Below are positions 10,194 to 57,978 of a stretch of 64,000 bases of DNA, piece by piece; position 1 is the stretch's first letter, and each line of letters starts with the position of its first letter. The translations under genes and the position numbers were made by a program. Location of the stretch: contig JAZKZX010000060.1 of assembly GCA_045612925.1 (NCBI GenBank), forward strand, positions 25,866 to 89,865, in the 5' to 3' direction. The notes beneath the pieces are model-generated. The model had not been told where the DNA came from, ran no database searches, and saw nothing but the letters and a program-made list of their open reading frames with translations. The stretch comes from Bacteroidaceae bacterium. Lineage in GTDB: Bacteria; Bacteroidota; Bacteroidia; Bacteroidales; Bacteroidaceae.

Positions 10194-10238
10194 CAAAGGT
10201 AGGTCAATAAAATAAGAAAGGCTGTGAATCTTGTACAC
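10194..10238 (-). promoter_or_regulatory. Island promoter copy 1: 15-nt box + 22 nt + -7 box.
   Basis: In the gene direction: GTGTACAAGATTCAC (10238-10224), then 22 nt, then TACCTTTG (10201-10194). ATG at 10149. The flanks extend to the inverted repeat GGCTGTG..CACAGCC. Confidence 0.75.
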
Positions 10239-10318
10239 AGCCCTTTGAACTACAAATTTGAACGGAATACAGACCTATTGTTATAGCTGCGCCCCCTCGA
10301 TTGGATTTATCATCGCCA

Positions 10319-10972
10319 TCAAAGCTCGATGGTGTAGCATACCTCTTCGTCGCGGCAGGCATCGAGGTTGATGCCTACGCGCTCGGCTACAAAGGCGTGG
10401 TCGTGCTCGCACACCCAACTGTAGTATTCGTCCATATCCCATTGGGCGGCGTCATCATCATCCCAGTCCTCTTCATAGAGTCTGTCATAGATGGATCGGT
10501 TGTCTTCCGCATCGGCATTCTCGTCTTCCTCTTTCGCGTCGGCGTCTTCATCTTCTTCCTCTTCTTCCTCATTGAGCTCCTCATCGTAGAATGCTGAACA
10601 GAAGCGACAATCGAAGGTCTCTTCCTCTTCTTCCTTCTTCACTGGGGTGTAGAGCCCGTTGCGCACATCCTCCTTGATGGCTTCGTCGAGGCACTCGTCG
10701 AGGCATTCGTTGTAGGCTTCGTAGAGCCAATACTCTTCGACCATGTAGTAGAACTTCTCTTCCAACTGCTCGTGCAGGGGCTCGAGCACTGTGGTGCCCT
10801 GGGCGATAGCCTTGGTAATGTCTTCGCAGGTGATCTTCTCCTTTCCAATCTGGCGGAGCGCCTCTAACTGTGCGTCGTCGACCTCGACTTCGATGTTCTG
10901 TTCACTGCCGTGTCCGTGTCCGCTACAGCTATAGCCGTAGAAGGCTTCTAATAATACTTTAATCTTTGTCAT
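10319..10972 (-). CDS. 217-aa extremely acidic protein, function unknown.
   Basis: The track ORF was trimmed to the ATG at 10972 (MTKIKVLLEAF...). Contains runs such as KKEEEEETF and NEEEEEEDEDADAKEEDENADAED. Lies directly downstream of the PfkB gene. Confidence 0.65.
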   Translation of the reverse strand: MTKIKVLLEAFYGYSCSGHGHGSEQNIEVEVDDAQLEALRQIGKEKITCEDITKAIAQGTTVLEPLHEQLEEKFYYMVEEYWLYEAYNECLDECLDEAIKEDVRNGLYTPVKKEEEEETFDCRFCSAFYDEELNEEEEEEDEDADAKEEDENADAEDNRSIYDRLYEEDWDDDDAAQWDMDEYYSWVCEHDHAFVAERVGINLDACRDEEVCYTIEL

Positions 10973-11040
10973 ATATAAAGATAGATAAATGTGAGGGTTT
11001 AATATGTAGATGTCAGTGTGTGTGGGTGTCGTCGGCTTTT

Positions 11041-11973
11041 TCAGCCCTGCTCGGCATCGATCATGCCCTTGCTGCTGAGGTAGGAGACGGAGCGCGAGGC
11101 AGTGAGGGTGGCCTCGGACAAGCACTCGTGGATGACGGGGACGGTCATCTGGTCGAGGGTGAGGAGGTCGCGCTGGCAGAGGGAGGCGATGAACTGGCTG
11201 GTGGTCCAGTCGCCAGCGCCCTCGGTGTCGACGACATGCGCGTTGGGGATGGGGGCGACCTTGACCCAGCCCTGCCCGCGGAGGTTGAACTCGAGGCCTT
11301 CGGCACCCAGGGTGCGGATGAGGAGTTTGTCGGTGCAGCGGTCGGCAAAGGTGAGGTCGCTGACCTTCTCGTGGCTAAACTTGATGATGTCGCTCACCAT
11401 GACGCCCTTGAGGAAGCGCTGCTGGGGGGCATCGCTCTCGGGCTCGAAGTAGATGAGCGTGCCTCGCTGGCGCAGCTCGCTGGCAAGGTAGCGGAGACCT
11501 GCCTCGGAGGCATCGAAGAAGAAGATGTCGGGCGTGAAGTCGAGCGCAGCCATGAAGCGTGGGGCCTCGTCGCGCACACGGAGGAAGCGGCGCTTGGGAA
11601 AGCGGCTCCCTGGCGAGGTGGCTCGAAACGAGGTGGTGGGGGTGCCGGTGAGTCTGTCGCGCTTGTGGGTGCAGCGCATGAGGGTGGTGCCACCGCTCTC
11701 GCTATTCTCGACGAAGCGTATGTCGGCTCCGTAGCGGCGGAGGTCGTCCCTGATCTGTAGACCCTGAGCAGAGAGGTCGAGGTGGGCGATGGGGTAGGTG
11801 GCTACTCCCAGGTAGGGGAGCATGCAACTGACGTTGCCGCAGGTGTTGCCCACACACTCGGTGACGATGGTCTCGGTGAAGGGGTTGCGGCTACCAATGA
11901 CGAATCCCTGGGGATAGTCGCGGGTGACGATGGTGTCGAGGGCGAAGTTGCCACTCAAAAGGCAGGTTTTCAT
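11041..11973 (-). CDS. PfkB/ribokinase-family sugar or nucleoside kinase.
   Basis: Trimmed to the ATG at 11973, which lies 34 nt below a -7 box. C-terminal PfkB signature VVDTEGAGDWTTS. GNxxGN-like motif CVGNTCGNVSC near the N-terminus. Confidence 0.75.
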   Translation of the reverse strand: MKTCLLSGNFALDTIVTRDYPQGFVIGSRNPFTETIVTECVGNTCGNVSCMLPYLGVATYPIAHLDLSAQGLQIRDDLRRYGADIRFVENSESGGTTLMRCTHKRDRLTGTPTTSFRATSPGSRFPKRRFLRVRDEAPRFMAALDFTPDIFFFDASEAGLRYLASELRQRGTLIYFEPESDAPQQRFLKGVMVSDIIKFSHEKVSDLTFADRCTDKLLIRTLGAEGLEFNLRGQGWVKVAPIPNAHVVDTEGAGDWTTSQFIASLCQRDLLTLDQMTVPVIHECLSEATLTASRSVSYLSSKGMIDAEQG

Positions 11974-11999
11974 GTGTATATTCTGTTTGTGTACGGAGG

Positions 12000-12044
12000 C
12001 AAAGATAGTGAAAATATTTAACATAGGTCGTGAATCTTGTACAC
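12000..12044 (-). promoter_or_regulatory. Island promoter copy 2.
   Basis: GTGTACAAGATTCAC (12044-12030), then 22 nt, then TATCTTTG (12007-12000). The box starts 3 nt after the stop of the preceding WG-repeat gene. Confidence 0.75.
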
Positions 12045-12047
12045 TAC

Positions 12048-12764
12048 CTATAAGAATATGCCTGAATGGTAAAGGAAGGCTTGATTGATGTCTTCGGTGA
12101 ACTGACCCTTGGAGTCGATGTAGCCCCACTGACCGTGAAGGTTGACCTTGATCCAACCGAGGTGCTGGGGGATGTGTATCTCATCGTAGATGGGTGGAAG
12201 GGGTAGGGCGGTGCCGTATAGACCTACTTTGCCGTCCTTGCGTAGCTCGATGTAGGGGGTGCCAGGGTGTGCGTCGAGGCTGTCGTAGACGGGGGTAAGT
12301 AGCTCTATGTATCTCTGATTGCCGTTGAGTGAGAGCAGGCCTACCTTTCCGTCGCGACGGAAGGAACAGAGGTCGATGATCTCGGCATAGGGTTCGATGA
12401 CATCGCAGACGAAGGGGTACATCTCCGTGCCTAGGCCATCGGCCTTGACGATGCCATACTTGTTGCCACAGCGGGCGATGTAGATTAAGGTGGTGCCAAC
12501 GCTATCGATGAGGCGGAGCTCGTCGTAGAGGGGTGCGACCAACTCGACATCGAACAGGGCGTGGTACACACCGTAGCGTCCGTCGTGCTCAAATACTTCG
12601 GCATATGAAGCGATGTTGCGATAGTGCCATGCCTCATTCTCGAGTCGGATGCGTGTGTCGTCATCGTGCTCGGCTGTTTCAAACTTGAGCATCAGTTCGT
12701 TGAGGCTCTCACGGGTAAGTGGGCGCAACTCCTCGATGGGGTTGCCAAACATGTCGAGGTACAT
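12048..12764 (-). CDS. WG-repeat-containing protein.
   Basis: Repeated units of the type KYGIVKADG, GKVGLLSLNG, GKVGLYG and GQWGYIDSKGQF, which are typical of WG/KWG beta-repeats. Confidence 0.7.
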   Translation of the reverse strand: MYLDMFGNPIEELRPLTRESLNELMLKFETAEHDDDTRIRLENEAWHYRNIASYAEVFEHDGRYGVYHALFDVELVAPLYDELRLIDSVGTTLIYIARCGNKYGIVKADGLGTEMYPFVCDVIEPYAEIIDLCSFRRDGKVGLLSLNGNQRYIELLTPVYDSLDAHPGTPYIELRKDGKVGLYGTALPLPPIYDEIHIPQHLGWIKVNLHGQWGYIDSKGQFTEDINQAFLYHSGIFL

Positions 12765-12865
12765 AGGGGGGTGATAATTAGGAGTTAGGGATTAGGAGTT
12801 AGGGAGAATGCTTGTTTGCTGCATCCTTTCATCTTAAAGCGTTAGTCTGTAATCGTTAGCATCGT

Positions 12866-14566
12866 TCATCTAAATCCTACGACGGGGTGTTTGCGTTGGA
12901 TATGTTCGAGGGACTCGCTATCACAGTAGGTACGCAGGGTGTCGAGCGAGGCCGACTGGTCGTAGAGGATGTAGTCGACCATGCGCTTGCGGGCGATGTT
13001 CTCGATCTGGCCACCGCTGAGACTGTATTCCGAGGCGAGCGAGTAGGCCTCGTCGGTGCTGAGGGTGGGGATCATGGATTGCCAGATGCTCTGGCGTGCC
13101 TCGAGGCTGGGACGGGCAAACTCCACCTTGTAGAGGAAGCGGCGCTCGAAGGCTTTGTCCATGTTGCTGGTGAGGTTGGTGGTGGCGATGAGGATGCCGT
13201 CGAGTTGCTCCATCTCTTCGAGGATGATGTTTTGCAGGGCGTTCTCCATCTTGTCGACACTGCGGGAGACGTGCTCCATGCGGGTGCCGATGATGGCATC
13301 GGCCTCGTTGAATAGCAGGATGGGAGCCTTGCTGCTCTTGGCGCACAGCTTGCGGTAGCGTTTGAAGAGCTTCTTGACGTTCTGCTCCGACTCGCCCACC
13401 CACTTGCTCTTGATGTCGGTGATGTTGACCTGCATGATGTCGCGCCCCGTGGCCTTGGCCAGCTGGAGGGCGGTCTCGGTTTTGCCCGTGCCCGGAGCTC
13501 CGAAGAAGAGGCAGGCGAAGCCCCTGCGCATGCCGCTCTCGGCGAGGCGGTGCTGAATGGCCTCGAACTGTTCGGGCTGGAGCAGCTGGCACAGCTTGTC
13601 GATGGCCTCGCGCTCGGTGGGGTTGTAGTACATGGACTTACCGACGATGTCCTTATGGCTCAGTAGACCGGCACAGTGGTCCAGCGTGTCGTCGGTCTCC
13701 CAAGCGAGGCCGAGCTCCTCGGAGAGCTGCTGGCGCACCTCGGAGGAGGGGGCTATGGAGTTGGAGCTTCCCATGAGGTCGGACTGGCTGTGGTATTCGA
13801 GGAGCGCCCCCTGGAGCAGGGGATTGGTGCCCGAGCTGATGCCCGAACTGATGTGCCCCCATGACCTGCGCTCGAAGAGAAAGCGGTATTGGTTGCTGAC
13901 GATGCGGGTGTCGCCACTGTTGACATACTCCCTGCAGCAGTAGAGGAAGAGGACCTGATCGTCGAGGCGGTGCTGAGCGATGCACTTGCACACGCTCAGC
14001 GTGCCATTCTTCTGGATGAGGCTGTTGAGTTCGCCATGGAGCTCCTTTGCCTCCATCAGCTTGTCGTCGCACTGGGTGAAAAGGTCGTCGATGCGCTCGA
14101 AGAACTCTGCTAGGGAGAGCCCCTCGTCTGTGGGGGGGATGTACTCGACATTCCTCATGTAAGCCTGTGCGGCAGCGGGGATGACGACGTACTGGATCTC
14201 ACCATCCATGTCCTTGACCTTACGGACGATGCGGCGATCGACCAGCTCGCCTATCTCGGGCATGTGGGTGATCATGTGCATGTTGCGTGTGTCGAGGTAG
14301 TGGGCCATGTTCTTCGTGCTGAGCGGACCTGCATGGTCGATGAGCATGGCTATGACCATTGACTGCAGTGGGGTAAACTGCAGGCGCTCCTCGAGGAGAG
14401 CGAAGGCCTCCTGTGCATTGGTCAGCGACTCGGGGTCGAGACTGCAGCCTCTGGACTCGATGAGCACTGTCTCCAATGCAGCGATGAGGGTGTCCTTACC
14501 GCTGACAACCTCTGTGGCAGCGATGTCGGTGGCGGATCTGGTGGTTCTTAATCTTCTTAGTCCCAT
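12866..14566 (-). CDS. AAA+ ATPase (classic AAA clade) with a winged-helix-like N-terminal region.
   Basis: Walker A FFGAPGTGKTETA. Walker B ILLFNEADAI. Second region of homology ATTNLTSNMDKAFERRF. Confidence 0.85.
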   Translation of the reverse strand: MGLRRLRTTRSATDIAATEVVSGKDTLIAALETVLIESRGCSLDPESLTNAQEAFALLEERLQFTPLQSMVIAMLIDHAGPLSTKNMAHYLDTRNMHMITHMPEIGELVDRRIVRKVKDMDGEIQYVVIPAAAQAYMRNVEYIPPTDEGLSLAEFFERIDDLFTQCDDKLMEAKELHGELNSLIQKNGTLSVCKCIAQHRLDDQVLFLYCCREYVNSGDTRIVSNQYRFLFERRSWGHISSGISSGTNPLLQGALLEYHSQSDLMGSSNSIAPSSEVRQQLSEELGLAWETDDTLDHCAGLLSHKDIVGKSMYYNPTEREAIDKLCQLLQPEQFEAIQHRLAESGMRRGFACLFFGAPGTGKTETALQLAKATGRDIMQVNITDIKSKWVGESEQNVKKLFKRYRKLCAKSSKAPILLFNEADAIIGTRMEHVSRSVDKMENALQNIILEEMEQLDGILIATTNLTSNMDKAFERRFLYKVEFARPSLEARQSIWQSMIPTLSTDEAYSLASEYSLSGGQIENIARKRMVDYILYDQSASLDTLRTYCDSESLEHIQRKHPVVGFR

Positions 14567-14687
14567 AGTTAGAGCATTTTAGTGTTTAGAGTTTAGTGTT
14601 TAGTGAGTCATCCGGATGGAAGCCAATAGCTAACAGTCAGCAACCAACCGACAAGTACCGTGTGTAGGGGAGGAGCACCCTGCTTAT

Positions 14688-15404
14688 TCAAAAGTTGGGG
14701 CGGAAGTTGTACCACCACTTGTCCTGGTCTTCGTCGCTGAGGGGCTCAGCGAGGAACTGGCCATCGCCGCTGATGTATCCCCAGGTGTCACCGAGGCGTA
14801 CGTGTACATTGTCATTCTCGTCGGGCTCCATCTCATCGTAGATGGGAGCTACATAGCTTCCATGCAGTGTGCAGAGACCATACTTGCCCTCGTTCTCGAG
14901 CATTACGATGTGGTTGAACGGCTCGTAGATGGTATCTACCATGGTGGGGAGGAGCTCGGTGCCGTCGGGGCGGAGGATGGTGGCCTTGCTGCCGCGGTGG
15001 ACGATGAAGTGGTCGGTCCAGGGGCAGAAGGTGATGTAGTCGTAGATGAAGTCGCAGATGGGTTTGCCACTGCCGTCGGCGTTTACGATGGCATACTTAT
15101 CCTCCCCGTTCATGACGGGCACGGGGAGCTCGCGCCAGTGGTCGTAGCGGTAGCGGGCGCCAATGGCCTTGTACAGCGCGGGGATGCGCACCTGGCCAGT
15201 GATGTCCTTGAGGCCCGTGAGACCGTTCTCGGTGAACTCCTGGTCGAAGAGGTCGTACTCGTCATGTAGCGCCTCCATCTTCTCGATGTACTCGTTGGCG
15301 AGGTTGAAGTCACCGTTGCGCATAGCTGCGTTCATCTCTGCGTTGTAGGTGGTGAACTTGTTGATGATCTCAGCGGTGGGGAGGTTTTTGCTCTTCTGTG
15401 TCAT
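14688..15404 (-). CDS. 238-aa WG-repeat-like protein, paralog of 18647..19366.
   Basis: Shares long identical runs with the paralog (FDQEFTENGLTGL, VDTIYEPFNHI, VHVRLGDTWGYIS). First gene after island promoter copy 3. Confidence 0.75.
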   Translation of the reverse strand: MTQKSKNLPTAEIINKFTTYNAEMNAAMRNGDFNLANEYIEKMEALHDEYDLFDQEFTENGLTGLKDITGQVRIPALYKAIGARYRYDHWRELPVPVMNGEDKYAIVNADGSGKPICDFIYDYITFCPWTDHFIVHRGSKATILRPDGTELLPTMVDTIYEPFNHIVMLENEGKYGLCTLHGSYVAPIYDEMEPDENDNVHVRLGDTWGYISGDGQFLAEPLSDEDQDKWWYNFRPNF

Positions 15405-15455
15405 AGCAGTAAAGACTTTAAGGTTAATGTATACGTGTTTTCAACTTTCACGCTG

Positions 15456-15500
15456 CAAAGTAAAAGCTTTTTCCCCAGAAAGGCTGTGAAACCTGTACAC
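15456..15500 (-). promoter_or_regulatory. Island promoter copy 3.
   Basis: GTGTACAGGTTTCAC (15500-15486), then 22 nt, then TTACTTTG (15463-15456). ATG at 15404. Confidence 0.7.
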
Positions 15501-15628
15501 GGCCGAATAATGTGTTAATTTTGTGTTAAGTAGATGGACGGATTTGGAAATCTCGGATTTTTGTTATAATATTTGTAAACACATAGCACAGCAATAAATC
15601 TTTATCCATCCTATTAATATATTTGATT

Positions 15629-16324
15629 ATGGAAAGACCGACTTATCCTTTAGACAGACGAGTGCTTGAAATCATTATTCATGATTTAGGTATGGAATCT
15701 AAGGTCTGCCTTGACGCAGAATCTAAAGCTTCTTCGTCAACATATGATGAAATCGCTATAATCATAGCAAATAAAGCGTGGGCATATATGTCAAGGCCGG
15801 GTGATAAACGTACCGAAGAGTATAATCCGTTGGATAGAATCACTTGGGAACGAATTTTTGGACAATTATCATCCAAGTCAAAATGTAGCATTAGAACACT
15901 TCAGCAGATAGCGCATGCTTTAGAATATCGCAACTGGGATGATTTGATGAAATGTATAGAAGACGACTATCATAATATAATTGAGAGGGGAATAGGTAGA
16001 GGACATTATGCATCTAGGATAAGTGTATCATCTAATAGATGTCACAAAATTAGTGAGGGTGACAAAGTGGATATAATTTGGGATAAATACCATAGAGGAA
16101 TCGCAAGAGCAGAATTGACATATCTTGGAAATAATCGTTATCGTGTGGACGATAGAGAAAATTGTAAACTTGAGCCAGGAGACGAGTTTATTTGTAAGGA
16201 TTATATGTTGCCATCTTTGTACTTTACTAATATAATAAGAGGGGGTGAGTCTATAGGCACGTACCATGGTGAGGGAATGTTTAAGAGGATTATCATTCAT
16301 AGGAATGGTGAACTCATAAAGTAG
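15629..16324 (+). CDS. 231-aa protein of unknown function, paralog of 19679..20416; candidate regulator.
   Basis: ATG at 15629; the track starts at a TTG six nt earlier. Shared N-terminus PTYPLDRRVLEII. Divergent from a box-bearing promoter. Low G+C. Confidence 0.7.
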   Translation: MERPTYPLDRRVLEIIIHDLGMESKVCLDAESKASSSTYDEIAIIIANKAWAYMSRPGDKRTEEYNPLDRITWERIFGQLSSKSKCSIRTLQQIAHALEYRNWDDLMKCIEDDYHNIIERGIGRGHYASRISVSSNRCHKISEGDKVDIIWDKYHRGIARAELTYLGNNRYRVDDRENCKLEPGDEFICKDYMLPSLYFTNIIRGGESIGTYHGEGMFKRIIIHRNGELIK

Positions 16325-16417
16325 TGTGCGAAGGATTCACAGGAATAGTAATTATCGACAAAAAAGATAAATAACGAGAGCAAACGATACGTTTTGTCAT
16401 ATGTTATGGTTCTGCCT

Positions 16418-16445
16418 CGCCCCCTTGAAGAGGGGGTGTGCTTTT
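16418..16445. terminator. Hairpin terminator between convergent genes.
   Basis: CGCCCCCT (16418-16425), loop TGAAG, AGGGGGTG (16431-16438), followed by CTTTT. Confidence 0.6.
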
Positions 16446-16504
16446 AAGTTAGTCCTTCCGTGATTAAAATGTAATATATACCCTTTCTTACCAATCTGTC
16501 TGCT

Positions 16505-16978
16505 TTACCCCTCTACTTCCTCTGAAGGGGTGTCTGATGGTTTCTGTATCAATGGTTTGATAGCTTGGTATATGTCGCGCAGGTCGATGTGGCGAAACTC
16601 GGAGGTGAGCCTGCGGGCACATGTCCAGCTCATGCTCTTGAAGGCTATACGGGGACATTGGGAGTCGGGTACATAGAGGTATAGCTCTCCCTTCGCTTGA
16701 TCCCATACGAGGGCCTCTTCATCGAGGTATTTTGTGTAGAGGGATGAGGCTAAGACGGCGCTCTTCAAGGAGAGAACCTTGATGCCGTCCTCGGTCTCGC
16801 CATGGCTATAGCGTGATGAAATGACGGGGCATAACTCAGCATAGCCACGCTCGTCGCATTGGGATGTCTTGAAGGCGTCCTCGAGGTAGGATGTGTCCAA
16901 TACGGCGGGATAGAGAGGGCGGTCTTTATTTTCCTCTATCATTGCCAAAAATTCTTTCTTGAGTGATTCGATGTCCAT
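16505..16978 (-). CDS. 157-aa hypothetical protein, last gene of the Sel1 operon.
   Basis: Complete ORF, 24 nt downstream of the 103-aa gene. No recognisable motif. Confidence 0.6.
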   Translation of the reverse strand: MDIESLKKEFLAMIEENKDRPLYPAVLDTSYLEDAFKTSQCDERGYAELCPVISSRYSHGETEDGIKVLSLKSAVLASSLYTKYLDEEALVWDQAKGELYLYVPDSQCPRIAFKSMSWTCARRLTSEFRHIDLRDIYQAIKPLIQKPSDTPSEEVEG

Positions 16979-17002
16979 AATTGTAGAGATGGTTAAGGTG
17001 GA

Positions 17003-17314
17003 TTAAGAAAGGTAATGCTTTACCAATCGCTCGATATATTCCTCGTTGGGGACTCGCTTGCCCGATTCGTCAAGCATAGTAATATCCTCTGCCAAATGAT
17101 GATATTCGCAGGGCGTTGTGTTCACTGGACGGCCATCGCTGTCTCTATAGACTGTGCCATCGTCATTCAGGTCGAATCCCGATTCTGCCAGAGTGCGAAC
17201 CTCTACTATGGACTCATCGGAAAAATCGATATGAAAGAGTTCGTCGGGATTGTAGCCATTACAACGAAGATGATCTTTGATGTAGTAACACACGTAGTCA
17301 AAGCTATATTCCAT
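17003..17314 (-). CDS. 103-aa hypothetical protein.
   Basis: Complete ORF, 18 nt downstream of the Sel1 gene stop. No recognisable motif. Confidence 0.55.
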   Translation of the reverse strand: MEYSFDYVCYYIKDHLRCNGYNPDELFHIDFSDESIVEVRTLAESGFDLNDDGTVYRDSDGRPVNTTPCEYHHLAEDITMLDESGKRVPNEEYIERLVKHYLS

Positions 17315-17332
17315 TGATATATTTATATAATG

Positions 17333-18223
17333 TTAATTGTTTGTTCTTATTTCTGCTTCTCTTTCAACGGCTAATCGCTCGAGCGAGGCTTTGGCCTCTT
17401 CGTCGCCCCGCTCGGCGGCTTGCTGGTACCAGTGGATGGCTTGCTCGAGGTCTTCGGCAACGCCATAGCCATTTTCGTAGCAATAGCCAAGCATCTCCAT
17501 GGCATTCTCGTCGTCTTGCTCGGCTGCGAGACGGAAGAGTTCTACGGCTCGCTCATCGTCTTCCTCTACGATGTCGCCATCGAAGTAGAGGGTGCCAAGG
17601 GTGAATAGGGCGTCGGCATCGCCCTGATCGGCGGCTTGGCGGTACCAATAGATGGCTTGCTCTCCGTCCTTCTCGACCCCCAAGCCCTCTTCGTAACAGG
17701 TGCCGAGGTGGTACTGGGCATAAACATCGCCTTGCTCGGCGGCTTGCCGGTACCAATATGCTGCTTGCTCATCGTCTTGCTCGACGCCCTCGCCGTTTTT
17801 GTAGAGACTGGCAAGGAGTGTCTGGGCAAACTTGTTACCTTGCTCGGCTGCGAGTCGGTACCAGTGGGCGGCTTGAGTATCGTCCTGCTCTACCACCTTG
17901 CCTTCTAAGTAGTATGAGGCTATGCGTCTTTGGGACTCGGCAAATCCCTGCTCTGCTGACTTGCGAAACCAGAGGTATGCTTGCTTGGGGTTGGGCTCGC
18001 CGTCATAGCCCTTCTCGTACCATACGCCCAGGGCGCACTCGCCACGGGCATTGCCCTGCTCTGCTGACAGGGTGAAGTAGTGATGGGCCTTGGCGAGGTC
18101 TTTCTCTGTGTCAATGCCATTGGCATAGCGTAGTCCAAGTTCGCACTGAGCAGCTGCATCGCCCTGCTCGGCTAATGCCTGCAGCTCCTGGAGGGTGGGA
18201 GTGTTTTCGTTGGGGTGTGTCAT
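17333..18223 (-). CDS. Sel1-like repeat (SLR/TPR-family) protein.
   Basis: About seven tandem units of the type AAEQGnaxAqxxLGxxYexGxGVexDxxqAxxWYrxAA. A -7 box TACATTTG (complement of 18247-18254) lies 24 nt before the ATG. Confidence 0.85.
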   Translation of the reverse strand: MTHPNENTPTLQELQALAEQGDAAAQCELGLRYANGIDTEKDLAKAHHYFTLSAEQGNARGECALGVWYEKGYDGEPNPKQAYLWFRKSAEQGFAESQRRIASYYLEGKVVEQDDTQAAHWYRLAAEQGNKFAQTLLASLYKNGEGVEQDDEQAAYWYRQAAEQGDVYAQYHLGTCYEEGLGVEKDGEQAIYWYRQAADQGDADALFTLGTLYFDGDIVEEDDERAVELFRLAAEQDDENAMEMLGYCYENGYGVAEDLEQAIHWYQQAAERGDEEAKASLERLAVEREAEIRTNN

Positions 18224-18302
18224 AGTTGTTGTTCTTAATAGTGATGCAAATGTACGGGATTAGTTTGTTAAATGCAAGTGTATGTGGGTGTTGTCAGCTT
18301 TT

Positions 18303-18400
18303 TCAGCTCTGCTCGGCTTCAATCATGCCCTTGCTGCTGAGGTCGGAGGCTGAGCATGAGGCAGTGGGCGTAGTATCGGCCAAGAGCTCGTGGAGGATGG
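18303..18400 (-). pseudogene. 3' remnant of a second PfkB-kinase gene.
   Basis: About 125 nt (18278-18400) align with 11016-11140. They encode ...TASCSASDLSSKGMIEAEQS*, compared with ...TASRSVSYLSSKGMIDAEQG* in the intact gene. The same 3' flank GTGGGTGT.GTC.GCTTTTTCA is present. Confidence 0.7.
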
Positions 18401-18502
18401 CTATGACCCATCTGAGGATTTTTCTCTTGAATCTTTTCATAAATGAATGTCTCTTTGGGTTATTGTTAGTTGTAGGAGATGGACAATGAGCGATGAACTT
18501 GT

Positions 18503-18646
18503 TTAGGGAGTTAAGGAGTTTAGGTGTTACGCTCCGCTTAGGAGTATAGACGATAGTCCGTCCGCGGCTTGCGATTTTCATAGTCTAAAGTATCGTCTTT
18601 ACTCCTTCACTCCTATACACCTTTACTCCCAAGAAGAAACACTTCT
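18503..18646 (-). repeat. GGAGT-rich palindromic element, copy A.
   Basis: Near-identical core to 36221-36402, 32288-32520 and 41729-41903. Abuts the stop of 18647..19366. Confidence 0.8.
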
Positions 18647-19366
18647 TTACTCCTCCCAGTCGGGGTCGAAGTTGTAGAGCCACTTGTCGTAGTCTTCGTC
18701 GCTGAGGGGCTCGGGGAGAAACTCGCCCTCGCTACTGATGTAGCCCCAGGTGTCACCCAGGCGTACATGTACCTTGTTGTCCTCGTCGGGCTCAATCTCT
18801 TCGAAGCGGGGAGCCACGAAGTCGCCACCTAAGGTGCAGAAACCATACTTGTCCTCATCCTTGAGGATGATGATGTGGTTGAACGGTTCGTAGATGGTGT
18901 CTACCATAGCGGGGAAGAGTGCAGAGCCGTCGGGGCATAGGAGGGTAGTCTTGTTTCCGACATGTGCTCTGAAGTCGCTGGTCCAGGGGAAGATTTCGAT
19001 ATAGTCATAGGCAAACTCGCACAGAGGTGTGCCACTGCCGTCGGCCTTGACGATGGCATACTTGTCCTCGCTGTTCATGACGGCTACGGGGAGGCTGCGC
19101 CAATGGTCGTAGCGGTAGCGGTCACCGATGGCCTTGTACTGGGCGGGGATGCGCACCTTGCCGGTGATGTCCATGAGGCCTGTGAGACCATTCTCGGTGA
19201 ACTCCTGATCGAAGAAGTCGTACTCGGCGGTGAGTGCCTCTACCTTTCTCAAGTACTCGTTGGCGAGGTCGAGGTCGTTGCTCTTCAGGGCGGCGTTCAT
19301 CTCAGCGTTGTAGGCTACGAAGGTTGAGATCGTCTCGGCGGTGGGGAGTAGTTTTGTCTGTTCCAT
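18647..19366 (-). CDS. 239-aa WG-repeat-like protein, paralog of 14688..15404.
   Basis: Complete ORF. See the paralog entry for the shared runs. Confidence 0.75.
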   Translation of the reverse strand: MEQTKLLPTAETISTFVAYNAEMNAALKSNDLDLANEYLRKVEALTAEYDFFDQEFTENGLTGLMDITGKVRIPAQYKAIGDRYRYDHWRSLPVAVMNSEDKYAIVKADGSGTPLCEFAYDYIEIFPWTSDFRAHVGNKTTLLCPDGSALFPAMVDTIYEPFNHIIILKDEDKYGFCTLGGDFVAPRFEEIEPDEDNKVHVRLGDTWGYISSEGEFLPEPLSDEDYDKWLYNFDPDWEE

Positions 19367-19417
19367 GTGAATGTAATGTTTTAAAGGTTTATAACTCGTG
19401 TTTCAATTTTCATGCTG

Positions 19418-19462
19418 CAAAGTAATACATATTTTTTGTGAAAGGCTGTGAATCCTGTACAC
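19418..19462 (-). promoter_or_regulatory. Island promoter copy 4 (proximal).
   Basis: GTGTACAGGATTCAC (19462-19448), then 22 nt, then TTACTTTG (19425-19418). ATG at 19366. Confidence 0.7.
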
Positions 19463-19518
19463 GCTCGAACAAATTTTCTTTATATGTCAGTAAACTCGTG
19501 TCCTCAGTTTTCATGACG

Positions 19519-19563
19519 CAAAGTAATATATAATCTATGAGAAAAATCGTGAATCCTGTACGC
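19519..19563 (-). promoter_or_regulatory. Island promoter copy 5 (distal, a tandem duplicate of copy 4).
   Basis: GCGTACAGGATTCAC (19563-19549), then 22 nt, then TTACTTTG (19526-19519). Confidence 0.6.
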
Positions 19564-19678
19564 GGCTCGTTTTTAGACGATTTTGTTGGGAAGTGCTTGG
19601 AAATGTCGAATATTTTTTATAATATTTGCAAATCGAGTAACGAAAAATCTTATACTAATCTTAATACCTATATATATT

Positions 19679-20416
19679 ATGGCAAATCCTACTTATCCAC
19701 TGGACAGACGAGTGCTTGAGATTATCATGGTGCTTACAGAAACTACACGTGAGGTTAATCTCGATACCGAAGCTAAGGCAACTAACGCCGTGTTTGAGAA
19801 AATTAGCACCAAGGTAGCAGATGAAGCATGGGAGATGGTGCGAGGAAATAGAAGTGAAGATGAACGCACTAAGGAGTATAAACCTAAGGATCCTAATACG
19901 TGGAAGCGCGTATTCGGGCACAACAATATGAGCAAGGGGTCTACCATCGGCACTGAAACTCTGAATCAGATATTGCTATTCCTTGACTACGCAAAGTGGG
20001 AAGATGTAGTAAAAGACCTCGACAATTTGTATAAGCGTGTCGTAGAAGAGCAGCAGCCCATTCGTAAAGCTGATGATGTGTCGGAACAAACACCGTATAC
20101 CAACTTCAGCCACCTGAGACCGGGCGATGAACTGGATGTGTATTGGCTCAAGAGTAGCAGATATGATGCGCCAGGCGAGGCTTGCATGAAAATTCGTTAT
20201 CTGGGAAGTTATGGAACTTATGGTGCACCTAAATTCCATATCAATGCCGTGCAGAACTGCTCGCTCGAGGCAGGAGAGGATTTTGATGCCCAGTGCTTAG
20301 AAGAGGGCATGAAGATTATGCTCACCAACCGACGACTCAACAATCGCCACAGAGGCAATTATGTGAGCGGCAGTGCGGTGACCTCTATCAAGATTTTCCG
20401 CAAGAAGGATTGCTGA
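19679..20416 (+). CDS. 245-aa protein of unknown function, paralog of 15629..16324; candidate regulator.
   Basis: ATG at 19679 (MANPTYPLDRRVLEII...). The track ORF starts upstream at a non-ATG codon. Confidence 0.7.
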   Translation: MANPTYPLDRRVLEIIMVLTETTREVNLDTEAKATNAVFEKISTKVADEAWEMVRGNRSEDERTKEYKPKDPNTWKRVFGHNNMSKGSTIGTETLNQILLFLDYAKWEDVVKDLDNLYKRVVEEQQPIRKADDVSEQTPYTNFSHLRPGDELDVYWLKSSRYDAPGEACMKIRYLGSYGTYGAPKFHINAVQNCSLEAGEDFDAQCLEEGMKIMLTNRRLNNRHRGNYVSGSAVTSIKIFRKKDC

Positions 20417-20533
20417 TAGGGAAGTATTCTCTTTTCCCAATATCTGTCAGTTGCATATATTATATATAGAATTAATATGTGGTTTGAATAGGGCTATTAA
20501 CGTAGGGAAATAACTATATAAAGGAATGTGAAT

Positions 20534-23500
20534 ATGGTGTGTATAGATGCAAGGAGATTGGCTTTATGGGAGTCCATGTCTGAAGAACAGAGATTGGAAA
20601 CATTGATTCAATATATGCAAAAATATGTTGTTGACAGGACTTATGATAACTATATTTTGCTTGCATTAGCTGCTAATGGCTTTTTGGATATCACATACAC
20701 TCATCAACCATTAGACGAATCAGTGCTTCGCCATATGGATAAGCCCCATGTGGTATTCAATCATGATCCAGATGGTATATGGAGAAAAAGGGTTGTTGAC
20801 GAAATAAATATTGTCCATATGGTCCCAGACAATCATCTGTTTCATCCGTTAGTAAAATATATGCAATCATTTTATGCTAATGGCTATTCTCGTTTATTGG
20901 ATATATACTCTTCAAAATTCGAAGCAGATTTTATGCTCTCTTATCTGCTATTATTAATAGGACAAGAGAATCTTAAGAGAAATTTTCGTAAAATATTACT
21001 TGATACATATCGACCTGAAGTAGACAATACTTTACATTTAACAACGAGTCCTATAGAAAGGAAATATGGAAATTGGGAAGCTTTTGCGAAAGCTTATTTA
21101 AATATAAATCACGGAAGAGTTCTTGATGTTTGTGCGGGTATTGGAACGTTTGCCATGCATATAGATTTGAAGAATACGACATATGTAGCTAATATGCCCA
21201 AGCGAATGGAAAATGATTTAATGAAAATGTTTTTCTATTCTGATGCTGAGTTTTCTTCTTATTACAAGCATAATCAAATTCAGGTGTGTGAGGATGATTT
21301 ATCTGATTTGGTGAAAAAAGGGCAACTATTTGACTATGTTATTTTCAATGGAGATAATATGTATAATATACATAATCTCGGGAAGGGAGAAAGTGATTTT
21401 ATAATAGAGTCTCATGATGTATTAAATCCTTTTCGTTTTAAAGAGGATTCACTTGAGTTAATAATGAAGTTGTTGTCTTCGGGTGGAAAGGCTTTGGCGG
21501 TAGTTGAAAATGAGAATTTATCTTATTTCCCAGAGGATTTGTATGGACATTGTATTGTTGATGTAATTCTAATTAGTCCTTATAGGAGTATTGTTTTATT
21601 GAATAACGATAAGAAGGTTAATGCAATCAAGGTGTATGATCGAACAACGTGGAATGATTTTACAGCAGAACGATTATTGGATAGCATTAACAGGCAAGAA
21701 GGTTTAATTACAATAACTCCTGAGTACTTAGATTGCATGGGGGGATATCTAAATGTTGATATTCTCAAACGGGATTTATATGAGATAGAGGTCCCTGTAG
21801 GGTACAAACTCCTCAAACTAGATAATATTGTGAATAGTGTTATTCCATCAATATATTATGGTTTATATGACAGTACTAAAATTTTGAATTACAATATAGA
21901 GGAATGTACTCCATTATCACCTTATGTTACCGCTCTTAATGGGCGATTCCCAGCAAAACATGAAAAAGACAACCCTTTCTCGTATTTCACTATTAAAGAT
22001 AGAGTTGTACTCATTCATTGCTTAAATAGGGAAAACTATAAGACTTGTATTTTTGACCCCAAAGAAGGAGAAATTGCTGTTGATTCGAATTATGTATACC
22101 TTTCTATCGATGAAGAGAAAGTTTGTATCGACTATCTTGTGTATCAAATGAATGAGGAGTATTTTCTTAAACAAATATTCCCTCATGGAAGGGAAAATAT
22201 AAACCATGTAGAGGATGAAGATATTTACTCTTGTCAGATTCTCGTCCCAGATGGAGAATCAAGTATAGAGCTCCAAAAGCAATTCATCGAAGACCTACGG
22301 CAAAGAGAAATTGCAAAGTTCGCTAAAAATTATGGATACGACTTGGGTAAATTTGTGCAGTACGAAGCCAGCAACCTGCCCAAGGGAACAACGTTGCATA
22401 GTAAAGAATATACCTATACCATTTTGGGAAATATCGGTTATGGTGGCTTCGGCAAGGTTTATAGGGCTATGAATGAGGATACCATGACGGAGGTTGCTAT
22501 TAAGGAATTCTTCCATAATGCACTTCAAGTGAGAGATCCTCAGACGAATGAGGTTAAGGTCAAATTTTCAGATTTTGATGCTATTGACTTTGCGGAGAAG
22601 AAATTTTGTGGTGAAATAGAAAAAATAAAGGAGTGCGCTCACGACAATATCGTAAAGGTATATGAGTTCTTTAGGGAGAACAATACTTGCTATTACTCTA
22701 TGGAATATATCGATGGGGAAAACCTCGTAAATAAAAAATGCATCGGAGAGCGTGAGGCACTTGCTATTATCAGACAGGTGGCTGGAGCCTTGAAGGCAAT
22801 GCATGAAAAGGGGTACAATCACTCGGATGTGAAGCCACAAAATATCTTAATAGATGACAATGGAGTGGCTACCTTGATTGATTTCGGGGGTGCACACTAC
22901 TATGGATATGACAACGATGAGGGGGTGTCGATATCGGGCAATTCGGTTGCCATGAAGATTGAGTCACCAGGATATACGCCAAAGTGTGCCTATGACACAC
23001 AGAAATTCCATGCAGGAAGGGATATCTATTCATTGGGCGCGACACTGTATTATATGCTTACTGGTAATTCACCTGCAACTATCGATAAGCAGATGAAGCC
23101 CGACAAGATATCTTCCAAGTCGTGGAGGGCAATATGCAAGGCAATGGAGGAGGACTCAAGTAAATGGCTCAACAGCATGGATGAGTTCTTAGCGCTTTTG
23201 CCTAGCGATGAAGAGGAGAAAATAGACAATATAGATGTGTCAGAGCCAACAAGAAAATGGCGAATAACTCCAACCCCAATAGTGGAACTAAAGATGGATG
23301 AGGTGTTTGTCTTTGGAAGCAACATTAAAGGCTTACATACTGGCGGTGCTGCAAAGCAAGCGCTTAAATGGGGAGCGCAAATGGGCGTAGCATCTGGTCC
23401 CATGGGGGATACCTATGCTATACCTACGGTAAATGTTACGGGGCTTGATGCGATTGAGGGATATGTGTCGCAATTCATAAAATATGTAGAGGGGAATGAC

Positions 23501-23656
23501 CATATAACCTTTTATGTAACAGCCATTGGTTGTGGCAATGCTGGCTTCTCTCCCGAGCAGATAGCTCCTCTCTTCAGAGATTGTATCGACTTGTCCAATG
23601 TCTATCTGCCCGAAAGCTTCTGGAGAGTACTCCGAAATAAGGGCCTCATAAAGTAG
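20534..23656 (+). CDS. 1040-aa fusion: SAM-methyltransferase-like domain with degenerate motif IV, a Hanks-type Ser/Thr kinase and a C-terminal A1S_2505-like domain.
   Basis: MTase motif I RVLDVCAGIGTF. At the motif IV position, FDYVIFNGDN replaces NPPY/F. Kinase motifs GYGGFGKVY, VAIKEF, HSDVKPQNILI and DFGGA. C-terminus VFVFGSNIKGLHTGGAAKQALKWGA..GDTYAIPT...AIGCGNAGF. ATG at 20534 (the track starts at a GTG at 20528). Confidence 0.8.
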   Translation: MVCIDARRLALWESMSEEQRLETLIQYMQKYVVDRTYDNYILLALAANGFLDITYTHQPLDESVLRHMDKPHVVFNHDPDGIWRKRVVDEINIVHMVPDNHLFHPLVKYMQSFYANGYSRLLDIYSSKFEADFMLSYLLLLIGQENLKRNFRKILLDTYRPEVDNTLHLTTSPIERKYGNWEAFAKAYLNINHGRVLDVCAGIGTFAMHIDLKNTTYVANMPKRMENDLMKMFFYSDAEFSSYYKHNQIQVCEDDLSDLVKKGQLFDYVIFNGDNMYNIHNLGKGESDFIIESHDVLNPFRFKEDSLELIMKLLSSGGKALAVVENENLSYFPEDLYGHCIVDVILISPYRSIVLLNNDKKVNAIKVYDRTTWNDFTAERLLDSINRQEGLITITPEYLDCMGGYLNVDILKRDLYEIEVPVGYKLLKLDNIVNSVIPSIYYGLYDSTKILNYNIEECTPLSPYVTALNGRFPAKHEKDNPFSYFTIKDRVVLIHCLNRENYKTCIFDPKEGEIAVDSNYVYLSIDEEKVCIDYLVYQMNEEYFLKQIFPHGRENINHVEDEDIYSCQILVPDGESSIELQKQFIEDLRQREIAKFAKNYGYDLGKFVQYEASNLPKGTTLHSKEYTYTILGNIGYGGFGKVYRAMNEDTMTEVAIKEFFHNALQVRDPQTNEVKVKFSDFDAIDFAEKKFCGEIEKIKECAHDNIVKVYEFFRENNTCYYSMEYIDGENLVNKKCIGEREALAIIRQVAGALKAMHEKGYNHSDVKPQNILIDDNGVATLIDFGGAHYYGYDNDEGVSISGNSVAMKIESPGYTPKCAYDTQKFHAGRDIYSLGATLYYMLTGNSPATIDKQMKPDKISSKSWRAICKAMEEDSSKWLNSMDEFLALLPSDEEEKIDNIDVSEPTRKWRITPTPIVELKMDEVFVFGSNIKGLHTGGAAKQALKWGAQMGVASGPMGDTYAIPTVNVTGLDAIEGYVSQFIKYVEGNDHITFYVTAIGCGNAGFSPEQIAPLFRDCIDLSNVYLPESFWRVLRNKGLIK

Positions 23657-23657
23657 C

Positions 23658-23702
23658 GTGTACAAGATTCACAGCACGATCAAAAACTTGTAATTATCTT
23701 TG
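23658..23702 (+). promoter_or_regulatory. Island promoter copy 6 (plus strand).
   Basis: GTGTACAAGATTCAC (23658-23672), then 22 nt, then TATCTTTG (23695-23702). The box starts 2 nt after the kinase-fusion stop. ATG at 23732. Confidence 0.75.
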
Positions 23703-23731
23703 CGGCATAAACGATAAAGGACTATTTACTT

Positions 23732-24508
23732 ATGCTTACCGATAAGAACATCATTGTCATAGGCGATGTGCATGGACGCACATCGTGGCGGAGGATTGTT
23801 GATCGGCACACGGGTTGCCGATTCGTGTTCTTGGGCGACTACTGCGACCCCTATGAGGAGATACCCGGTGAGGCGGTGCTCGACAACCTGAAGGAGATTA
23901 TCCATTTCAAGCAGGAGCATCCCGACGAGGTGGTACTCCTGTTGGGAAATCATGATGTGCACTACATAGACTACGGAGCTCCCCTCTGCTCGCGAATCAA
24001 CCTGGAGCTGGCTTGGCAGCTTAGGGAGATCTTCACCAAGCATGCCGACTGTTTCCAGTGCGCCCATAGCGAGCGGGGCATCCTCTTTACCCATGCAGGG
24101 GTCTCCGAGGCATGGTTCTGCCAGTCGTTCGTGGGCGATGCCGATGGCGACATCGCTTCGCAGCTCAATGCCCGCTCCACAGACAAGGTCCTTTACCACT
24201 GCGGAGCGGCACGCCGAGGCCCTCATCCCCATGGAGGCATCTACTGGGCAGGGAAGAGCGAAATGCTATGTCCGCTCCGAGGGACGACGCAAGTGGTGGG
24301 GCATACACGCACCGAGGGCGTGGAGCGCATCGAGAGTGGCGAGGGGGTAGTGTACTTCTGTGACTGTCTGGAGAAAGGCAAGTACCTCATGATCGAGGGC
24401 GGATCAGTCCCACAACTCTACGAACTGAAGATTGATAGCGAGGAGCGAAGATCTCTCACTGCTCACCTCACGTCGAGCAGCGTGATGTCAAAGATGAGGG
24501 TAGAGTAG
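23732..24508 (+). CDS. Calcineurin-like (PPP-type) metallophosphoesterase, probably a Ser/Thr protein phosphatase.
   Basis: Motifs GDVHGR, FLGDYCD, GNHD, THAG and VVGHT. Confidence 0.8.
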   Translation: MLTDKNIIVIGDVHGRTSWRRIVDRHTGCRFVFLGDYCDPYEEIPGEAVLDNLKEIIHFKQEHPDEVVLLLGNHDVHYIDYGAPLCSRINLELAWQLREIFTKHADCFQCAHSERGILFTHAGVSEAWFCQSFVGDADGDIASQLNARSTDKVLYHCGAARRGPHPHGGIYWAGKSEMLCPLRGTTQVVGHTRTEGVERIESGEGVVYFCDCLEKGKYLMIEGGSVPQLYELKIDSEERRSLTAHLTSSSVMSKMRVE

Positions 24509-57900: not shown

Positions 57901-57904
57901 GTCG

Positions 57905-57978
57905 TGATTCCGTTGCGACTCGAACGCAAGACCTACTGCTTAGAAGGCAGTTGCTCTATCCAGCTGAGCTACGGAACC
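57905..57978 (-). tRNA. tRNA-Arg (anticodon TCT).
   Basis: 74-nt cloverleaf folded by hand: acceptor GGTTCCG/CGGAATC, D stem GCTC/GAGC, anticodon stem ACTGC/GCAGT with loop CTTCTAA, T stem TTGCG/CGCAA with loop TTCGAGT. No encoded CCA. Confidence 0.9.

Follow-up and report, generated by a model that had tools for sequence, protein, structure and literature searches.

A box at a fixed distance from the −7 element of six island promoters

The stretch of DNA analyzed here, referred to below as the window, comprises 64,000 nucleotides (nt) of contig JAZKZX010000060.1 from a Bacteroidaceae bacterium (assembly GCA_045612925.1, positions 25,866 to 89,865). At ∼5-24.5 kb it contains an island whose composition is unlike that of its surroundings, and within this island six predicted promoters carry a 15-nt box placed exactly 22 nt upstream of a −7 element. 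The genes that follow are diverse, and the likeliest role of the box is to bind a single regulator through which they are jointly controlled.

The window (positions 1-64000) was searched with the pattern GTGTACARGWTTCAC, allowing up to two mismatches, which returned six matches at no more than one mismatch and none further at two. Dinucleotide shuffles of the window gave a mean of 0.4 matches, and in 0 of 100 shuffles was a count of six attained. When the search was relaxed to three mismatches, the additional matches were near chance level. The coordinates of all six boxes, including the divergent GCG start of copy 5, are as an earlier note on this sequence had given them. Alignment of the copies on the box places a T[AT]nnTTTG element after a gap of 22 nt in every case, the form being TAnnTTTG in copies 1, 2 and 6 and TTnnTTTG in copies 3, 4 and 5. 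The next ATG lies 26-51 nt 3′ of the −7 element, with the exception of copy 5, which is a distal promoter.

Promoter 1 (10194..10238, minus strand) consists of a box at 10238-10224, the 22-nt spacer and the −7 element TACCTTTG at 10201-10194, and would drive the gene for a 584-amino acid (aa) AlbA_2 protein with its ATG at 10149; an orthologue of this promoter is present in the related locus L025. Promoter 2 (12000..12044, minus strand; box 12044-12030, −7 element TATCTTTG at 12007-12000) starts 3 nt past the stop codon of the WG-repeat gene at 12048-12764, precedes genes for a PfkB-like kinase (11973-11041) and an acidic protein, and has orthologues in L002, L016 and L025. Promoters 3 and 4 are paralogues. 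Promoter 3 (15456..15500, minus strand; box 15500-15486, −7 element TTACTTTG at 15463-15456) lies before a WG-AAA-WG operon (15404-12048) and has orthologues in L002 and L026/L049. Promoter 4 (19418..19462, minus strand; box 19462-19448, −7 element TTACTTTG at 19425-19418), which has an orthologue in L020, is the proximal member of a tandem pair before the operon 19366-16505. The distal member, promoter 5 (19519..19563, minus strand; −7 element TTACTTTG at 19526-19519), has the box GCGTACAGGATTCAC at 19563-19549, 101 nt upstream of copy 4; where this copy begins GCG, its L002 orthologue reads GTG. On the opposite strand, promoter 6 (23658..23702, plus strand; box 23658-23672, −7 element TATCTTTG at 23695-23702) precedes the metallophosphatase gene at 23732-24508. 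This arrangement agrees with the proposal that boxes stand before the AlbA_2 gene, before the PfkB pair, before each of the two WG operons, one of which has two boxes, and before the metallophosphatase gene.

Copies 3 and 4 both lie within a duplicated stretch of ∼800 bp, comprising promoter and WG-repeat gene, with 82-86% identity to one segment of L002, and were therefore counted once. Copies 1, 2, 5 and 6 have nothing in common with the other copies except the box and the −7 element. A degenerate box, GTGCGAAGGATTCAC, with three mismatches, is present on the plus strand at 16326-16340, 2 nt past the stop codon of the gene for small protein A (see below). No −7 element is found 22 nt downstream of it, and in all probability this box either has no function or arose by chance. 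Further downstream, at 16418-16438, is a strong hairpin resembling a terminator.

The earlier note had described a hairpin around three of the copies and a box start 2-3 nt after the preceding stop codon in two of them. With regard to the first point, only the box of copy 1 lies in the loop of a perfect GGCTGTG...CACAGCC hairpin, with a 10-bp stem followed by a T-rich run (z = −3.7 relative to shuffles). Copy 2 has the same loop on a different stem (z = −3.0), but copies 3-6 fold no better than shuffles. Boxes 1 and 2 thus lie in 9-nt hairpin loops (10214-10250 and 12020-12056, minus strand), with the stems AAAGGGCTGTG/CACAGCCTTT and ATAGGTAGTG/CACGACCTAT, respectively; these hairpins may be terminators of the upstream genes that overlap the next promoter. 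With regard to the second point, two copies do lie close to a stop codon, but the distance is 3 nt for copy 2 and 1 nt for copy 6. Over all loci, some boxes begin 1-7 nt after the preceding stop codon, and outside the window the distance ranges from −11 nt (L006, where the box lies within the kinase gene) to about 180 nt.

Conservation and distribution of the box

One genome from each of 185,579 species was scanned with the pattern box-N{20,24}-TWNNTTTG. Seven matches were obtained in three Bacteroidaceae metagenome-assembled genomes (MAGs), and although the pattern admitted gaps of 20-24 nt, the gap was 22 nt in all seven, in keeping with the exact spacing first noticed in the window. The sole match in a species outside the Bacteroidaceae, in Desulfoluna, has a gap of 23 nt and looks like chance. 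A looser form of the box combined with a fixed 22-nt gap was found at 21 metagenome loci, nine of which came from one assembly of the organism of the window and its relatives; most of the others look like chance matches. Further contigs were gathered through homologues of the small protein described below and scanned for the box without any condition on spacing. Boxes with a −7-like element 22 nt away were present in L006, L028, L042/43, L044, L045/46, L047/48 and L049. Overall, more than 25 further box promoters were found in related metagenome and MAG contigs, and the gap was 22 nt throughout. In the related loci, as in the window, the T[AT]nnTTTG element stands at a suitable distance before a gene start.

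The consensus over all instances is GTGTACA[AG][GC][AT]TTCAC. The information profile of 17 non-redundant promoters reveals a sharp 15-nt block with a preferred C immediately before it, followed by an uninformative spacer of 22 nt and then TAnCTTTGC. When seven orthologous phosphatase promoters were aligned, the box and the −7 element were found to be kept while the spacer had diverged, which bears out the view of the box as a selected promoter element with fixed geometry over the −35 region. The left half-box GTGTA and the right half-box TTCAC were never exchanged in more than 25 instances, implying that orientation relative to the promoter matters. The tandem arrangement recurs in L006, L020 and L047 with a spacing of 97-101 nt. 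In L002, the two tandem box promoters are 259 nt apart, compared with 101 nt in the window, and 171 nt between them (4174-4344) have no counterpart in the window; a possible 89-aa open reading frame (ORF) is located at L002 4151-4420.

The window contains no box in its 40 kb of housekeeping genes, none having emerged from the whole-window search at up to two mismatches, and about 126 kb of sequence from related Bacteroidaceae that do not carry the gene system described below likewise contains no box promoter. The claim that the box is restricted to the island therefore holds within the window, but not beyond it. In two ruminant-rectum Bacteroidaceae MAGs (L001 and L003), a box, a 22-nt gap and TAACTTTG are present between adk and obg. 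The spacer in question is about 115 nt long (L001 5984-6099, L003 2163-2275), with a repeated GAATTCnTAACTT around the −7 element. By contrast, in relatives with 95-97% identity in Obg, adk and obg are separated by 2-39 nt and no box is present, which indicates that the obg box promoter is a recent, lineage-specific acquisition; obg was rejected as a general target of the box.

Two isolated occurrences were also recorded. An unrelated metagenome contig of 40% GC (L010) contains an exact box, a 22-nt gap and TAGTTTTG at 5620-5664, 30 nt upstream of a gene for an LptF/LptG permease; the match may be fortuitous, or the box may have been recruited to a further housekeeping promoter. In L031, which contains a distant version of the gene system and no box, the kinase promoter (2150-2250) reads CATTCAC-N22-CACATTTG, a single case that may be coincidence. 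The strict pattern had no match in IMG/VR, where the looser one gave one intragenic match, in a phage of 31% GC, that appears to be due to chance; on this evidence and that of the protein searches given below, a phage or plasmid origin was rejected. A literature search on the box sequence, on activators at TAnnTTTG promoters and on the WG repeat found nothing relevant.

The gene system marked by the box

Gene families in the window island were assigned with Pfam and PADLOC (PADLOC-DB v2). On the minus strand, the WG-AAA-WG operon (12048..15404) begins with a WG-repeat protein (WG2, 14688-15404), continues with a 566-aa AAA ATPase (12866-14566) that is IetA/TRIP13-like in PADLOC, and ends with a second WG-repeat protein (12048-12764), the families being recognized by Pfam. 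Divergent from promoter 3 is the plus-strand gene for small protein A (15629-16324), which has a paralogue of 35% identity, small protein B (19679-20416, plus strand). The latter gene is followed on the same strand by those for a 1042-aa serine/threonine kinase (20528-23656) and the metallophosphatase (23732-24508), which together with it constitute a conserved module (19679..24508). Neither small-protein gene is preceded by a box, and both have ordinary promoters. An accessory operon on the minus strand (16505-19366) encodes a WG-repeat protein (18647-19366), a 92-aa ORF, a Sel1-repeat protein (17333-18223) and ORFs of 103 and 157 aa. Three further accessory genes, also on the minus strand, encode the PfkB-like kinase (11041-11973), the 218-aa acidic protein directly after it (10319-10975), which contains long Glu/Asp runs and has no family match, and the AlbA_2 protein (8395-10149; Pfam).

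Comparison with related loci shows that the boxes mark a specific set of genes. In every longer contig the core consists of WG, AAA and WG genes divergent from genes for a small protein, a Ser/Thr kinase and usually a metallophosphatase. This six-gene system was seen in the window (12048-24508) and in L002, L006, L020, L028, L042/43, L047/48 and L031, and a distant member keeps kinase, AAA and phosphatase genes together. The WG-AAA-WG operon is conserved in L002, L028, L042 and L047, and the order small protein B, kinase, box promoter, metallophosphatase is the same in L006, L020, L028 and L047. Within the core, the WG operon is preceded by a box promoter or, more usually, by a tandem pair at a spacing of 97-101 nt, and the phosphatase gene has a box promoter of its own, which sometimes overlaps the end of the kinase gene; the small-protein/kinase operon has none.

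In all, genes of at least 10 unrelated families are found behind a box, and almost every one of them is beside the conserved system. The accessory genes vary by genome and each newcomer has a box promoter; in the window, these are the genes for PfkB, the acidic protein and AlbA_2. Other genomes have different box-driven genes at the corresponding position. The box-driven accessory genes outside the window encode HD-domain proteins (L005 and L028), an AddB/AddA-like nuclease-helicase pair (L015), a 171-aa ORF downstream of an AddA-like fragment (L019), an extra WG protein (L030) and a 207-aa ORF (L047). The recurrence of the box before new, unrelated accessory genes in related islands supports the earlier suggestion that it ties diverse genes into one putative regulon. 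What had been taken for a regulon of generic island genes is better described as a specific conserved WG-AAA-WG/small protein/kinase/metallophosphatase system with exchangeable accessory genes. Relative to L002, the window contains an extra module made up of the Sel1 operon (16505..19366) and small protein A. The paralogous stretches of promoter and WG gene flank this module, which suggests that ordinary homologous recombination was at work.

The components of the system diverge at unequal rates. When the window was compared with L002, L006, L028, L042 and L047, identities between loci were 23-57% for the small protein and 32-56% for the kinase, as against 56-86% for the first WG protein (WG2, 14688-15404), 55-91% for the AAA ATPase and 51-75% for the metallophosphatase. 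An overall range of 38-87% was also recorded for the WG, AAA and phosphatase proteins. The box is unchanged across these loci, in which the small protein and kinase have changed far more rapidly than the rest of the system. On sequence grounds, this pattern resembles that of an arms-race sensor pair.

The system matches no defense system catalogued in PADLOC, in which the WG, small-protein and phosphatase genes have no match. The domain-level matches are of the kinase to mad6/PD-T4-6 and of the AAA protein to IetA/TRIP13. The system is missing from the viral and plasmid collections: no relative of the WG protein was found in IMG/VR or PLSDB, nor one of the small protein among GenBank phages. 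Both the motif and the system it marks appear to be undescribed. In kind, the box belongs with the well-known transcription-factor sites that occupy a set position in their promoters.

Two genes next to the system have no box. A low-GC gene for a 981-aa protein (1916-4861, minus strand) shows DruL/DruF-like (Druantia) similarity, and beside it lies the gene for a 994-aa AlbA_2+WYL protein (5309-8293, plus strand). Both are probably separate defense genes adjoining the system. The sole match of either Rfam or ARAGORN in the window is a tRNA-Arg(TCT) at 57904-57978 (minus strand), and the Rfam scan revealed no other known RNA element.

Promoter anatomy, candidate binding factor and alternative explanations

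The TAnnTTTG −7 element is characteristic of Bacteroidetes promoters recognized by the primary sigma factor. If this element is assumed to occupy its usual position, the box spans about −48 to −34 with its center near −41, and its 3′ end stands where the −33 element would be. A −33 TTG (19-21 nt upstream of the −7 element) was found in 0 of 17 box promoters compared with 5 of 15 other intergenic promoters of the window. The TTCAC that occupies this position in the box was found there in no other promoter of the window and was rejected as a general −35-like element. A scan of the window with sigma-70 and terminator consensus sequences was uninformative for this promoter type.

The combination of an invariant distance, a fixed orientation, an asymmetric site and a missing upstream element is what distinguishes promoters dependent on an activator in contact with RNA polymerase, and sites for repressors are usually less constrained in position. 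The preferred explanation, to which a probability of roughly 0.6 is assigned, is that the box is a cis-regulatory protein-binding site in promoters of the primary sigma factor, and that it is most likely bound by a class II-type activator that contacts RNA polymerase. That the box promoters are active is suggested by their resemblance to the Bacteroidetes consensus, and that the bound factor activates rather than represses is suggested by the anatomy of the promoters.

A close parallel is provided by class II promoters of CRP and FNR (sites at −41.5), in which the site also overlaps −35, is centered near −41, holds a strict position and replaces the upstream element. The box differs in that GTGTA-N5-TTCAC is imperfect and always in the same orientation, whereas the sites of CRP/FNR (TGTGA-N6-TCACA or TTGAT-N4-ATCAA-like) are two-fold symmetric. 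The box promoters are also of the Bacteroidetes −33/−7 type, and the position of the start site is read here from the −7 element. A regulator of the CRP/FNR family was not found among the island genes, none of which encodes a cyclic nucleotide-binding or Crp helix-turn-helix (HTH) domain. The marbox of MarA/SoxS/Rob and the pho box of PhoB are similar in being asymmetric and orientation-specific, in lying at a fixed distance from −10 where they replace or overlap −35, and in allowing one factor to serve many unrelated genes. The box has no sequence similarity to either, and the loci contain no gene for an AraC-family protein or a response regulator. The box promoters resemble the canonical Bacteroides primary-sigma promoter (−33 TTTG, −7 TAnnTTTG) in their −7 element, in how far this lies from the start codon and in having an A-rich leader. 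They differ from it at −33, where the usual element is replaced by the 3′ end of the box in 17 of 17 cases.

BrxR, CapW and other WYL-type defense regulators also act at a locus-linked site over genes of the kind found in defense islands, and a WYL-domain gene (5309-8293) lies nearby. The operators of BrxR/CapW-type proteins, however, are palindromes that serve for repression at one promoter per system, in contrast to an asymmetric box at a fixed position in up to six promoters per island. Furthermore, the WYL gene of the window, one of three candidate binders named in the earlier note, lies outside the conserved module and was not seen in other loci. The two other candidates put forward with it, small proteins A and B (15629-16324 and 19679-20416), are paralogues of a core component of the system, and neither has a significant match to a DNA-binding domain.

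This divergent small protein is the best candidate for the binding factor, an assignment that is tentative and to which we give appreciably less than even odds. It is always found beside the tandem boxes and divergent from them. Its N-terminal motif PTYPLDRR(V/I)LE (window 15629-15680 and 19679-19730) is present only in the 15 closest of 298 family representatives, and boxes were nearby in 9 of 9 examined loci with the PTYPLDRR motif but in 0 of 2 loci with family members that do not have it. A T-x-K-R helix followed by TL..IA.FLGY is nearly invariant across the family and resembles the recognition region of Cro/C1-type HTH domains. The small protein is 200-245 aa long in system loci; the wider family (298 representatives) is mostly ∼190 aa, with a C-terminal small β-barrel. 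AlphaFold2 models of small protein A had predicted local distance difference test scores of 80.6 (full length) and 93.1 (N-terminal domain).

The small protein matched nothing in Pfam, NCBIfam or PADLOC, and profile searches against the PDB returned nothing significant. Below threshold, there were matches to HTH_26 in one family member (E = 0.05) and to a transposase HTH (E = 0.6). When 150 family members were compared with Pfam, the C-terminal barrel showed only a faint resemblance to TOBE domains, and in none was an HTH family among the top families.

Several points weigh against the explanation of the box as an activator site and of the small protein as its binding factor. The activity of the promoters and the −41 position of the box rest on the consensus position of the −7 element. 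No protein of any locus has a significant match to a DNA-binding domain, and Foldseek comparison of the small-protein model, either whole or as the N-terminal domain, with the PDB gave no significant match. Alignment by hhalign with a hand-made Cro/C1/SinR HTH alignment yielded a probability of 0.6%. Rapid evolution of the small protein alongside an unchanging box is odd for a cognate pair. Finally, in the two MAGs with a box before obg, the system was not seen within the 8 kb examined.

The last observation implies that the factor could be host-encoded, and the obg promoter is the chief reason to entertain such a factor. Under this explanation, the box would be bound by a regulator belonging to these Bacteroidaceae rather than to the system, and the island genes and obg would each have acquired the site. 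The adk-obg spacer, short and box-free in close relatives, fits well with such a scenario, as do the want of a recognizable DNA-binding domain in the system proteins and the invariance of the box while those proteins diverge. Set against this, nearly all boxes lie within a few kilobases of the system, the 40 kb of housekeeping genes in the window and the 126 kb from related genomes are free of them, and the distant version of the system in another Bacteroidetes-like contig has no box. A host factor is a serious possibility, about on a par with the small protein, but a minority one. Somewhat less likely again is a repressor that binds the box over the −35 region, silences effector and accessory genes of possible toxicity and is released by a trigger. 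The box overlaps the region bound by polymerase, tandem sites could permit cooperative repression, and defense and toxin-like genes are commonly repressed. Yet the gap is 22 nt in all of the more than 25 promoters and the orientation never flips, whereas repressor sites normally tolerate variable positions, and promoters without a −33 element look weak without help, as is typical of those that depend on an activator.

The remaining explanations carry little weight. A dedicated alternative sigma factor recognizing the box as its −35-type element, as the earlier note had entertained, would account for the fixed distance to the downstream element, the fixed orientation and the missing −33 element. 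It is nonetheless improbable, given that the downstream element is an ordinary primary-sigma TAnnTTTG and not a −10 of the extracytoplasmic function (ECF) type, that no gene of any locus encodes a sigma-70 region 2 or 4 domain, and that 15 nt is long for a −35 element. The notion from the same source of an attC-like recombination site at cassette junctions, with the promoter link secondary, is poorer still. It draws on the location of the box between exchangeable genes, on the box at the 5′ end of accessory genes that differ between genomes, on the starts 1-7 nt after a stop codon, and on the palindromic TGTACA core with hairpins at copies 1 and 2, the stem sequences of which differ. Integron attC sites, however, are found at the 3′ end of promoterless cassettes, have a conserved hairpin and need an integrase, none of which applies to the box. 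The variable distance to the stop codon (−11 to about 180 nt), the failure of four of the six window copies to fold and the absence of an integrase or recombinase domain from the window island and 12 related loci are all at odds with recombination at the box. The sole mapped rearrangement (window versus L002) has its breaks in the ∼800-bp paralogous stretches, and the idea leaves unexplained both the exact 22-nt link to the −7 element and the boxes in divergent intergenic regions (copies 3-5). Least credible of all is that the copies resemble one another through repeated duplication of one promoter and share no function. Copies 3 and 4 do belong to one duplicated segment, but most copies show no relationship in their spacers and flanks beyond the box and the −7 element, and the box resists divergence where its surroundings have all changed.

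If the box is indeed the binding site of an activator, the following scheme can be envisaged. The small protein and the kinase, made constitutively from an ordinary promoter, would constitute the sensor and regulator half of the system, and a single signal would lead to the activation of all box promoters together. The targets would be the WG-AAA-WG operon, through its two tandem box promoters, and the changing plug-in accessory genes. The box-driven phosphatase would reset the kinase, giving negative feedback, such that kinase and phosphatase may together control the box-binding factor. More speculatively, and with slightly less confidence than attaches to the small protein as the binding factor, the box may represent the output switch of a previously undescribed signaling system of gut Bacteroidaceae under kinase/phosphatase control, probably directed against phage. 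In such a system a small HTH-like protein and a Ser/Thr kinase, as a fast-evolving sensor pair, would turn on the WG-AAA-WG effectors, the feedback phosphatase and the freely exchangeable plug-in effectors through an invariant operator, and any gene, among them obg in some lineages, could join by acquiring a box 22 nt upstream of a −7 element.

To our knowledge, the unusual promoter type of the Bacteroidetes has so far yielded a mere handful of defined activator sites and hardly any regulons, and the motif described here supplies a precise geometry of box, 22 nt and −7 element. Read across genomes, the box provides a ready list of the members of the system, including its swappable accessory genes. 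Should the system turn out to serve immunity or a stress response, the box would offer a handle for reporters, pull-downs and induction assays.

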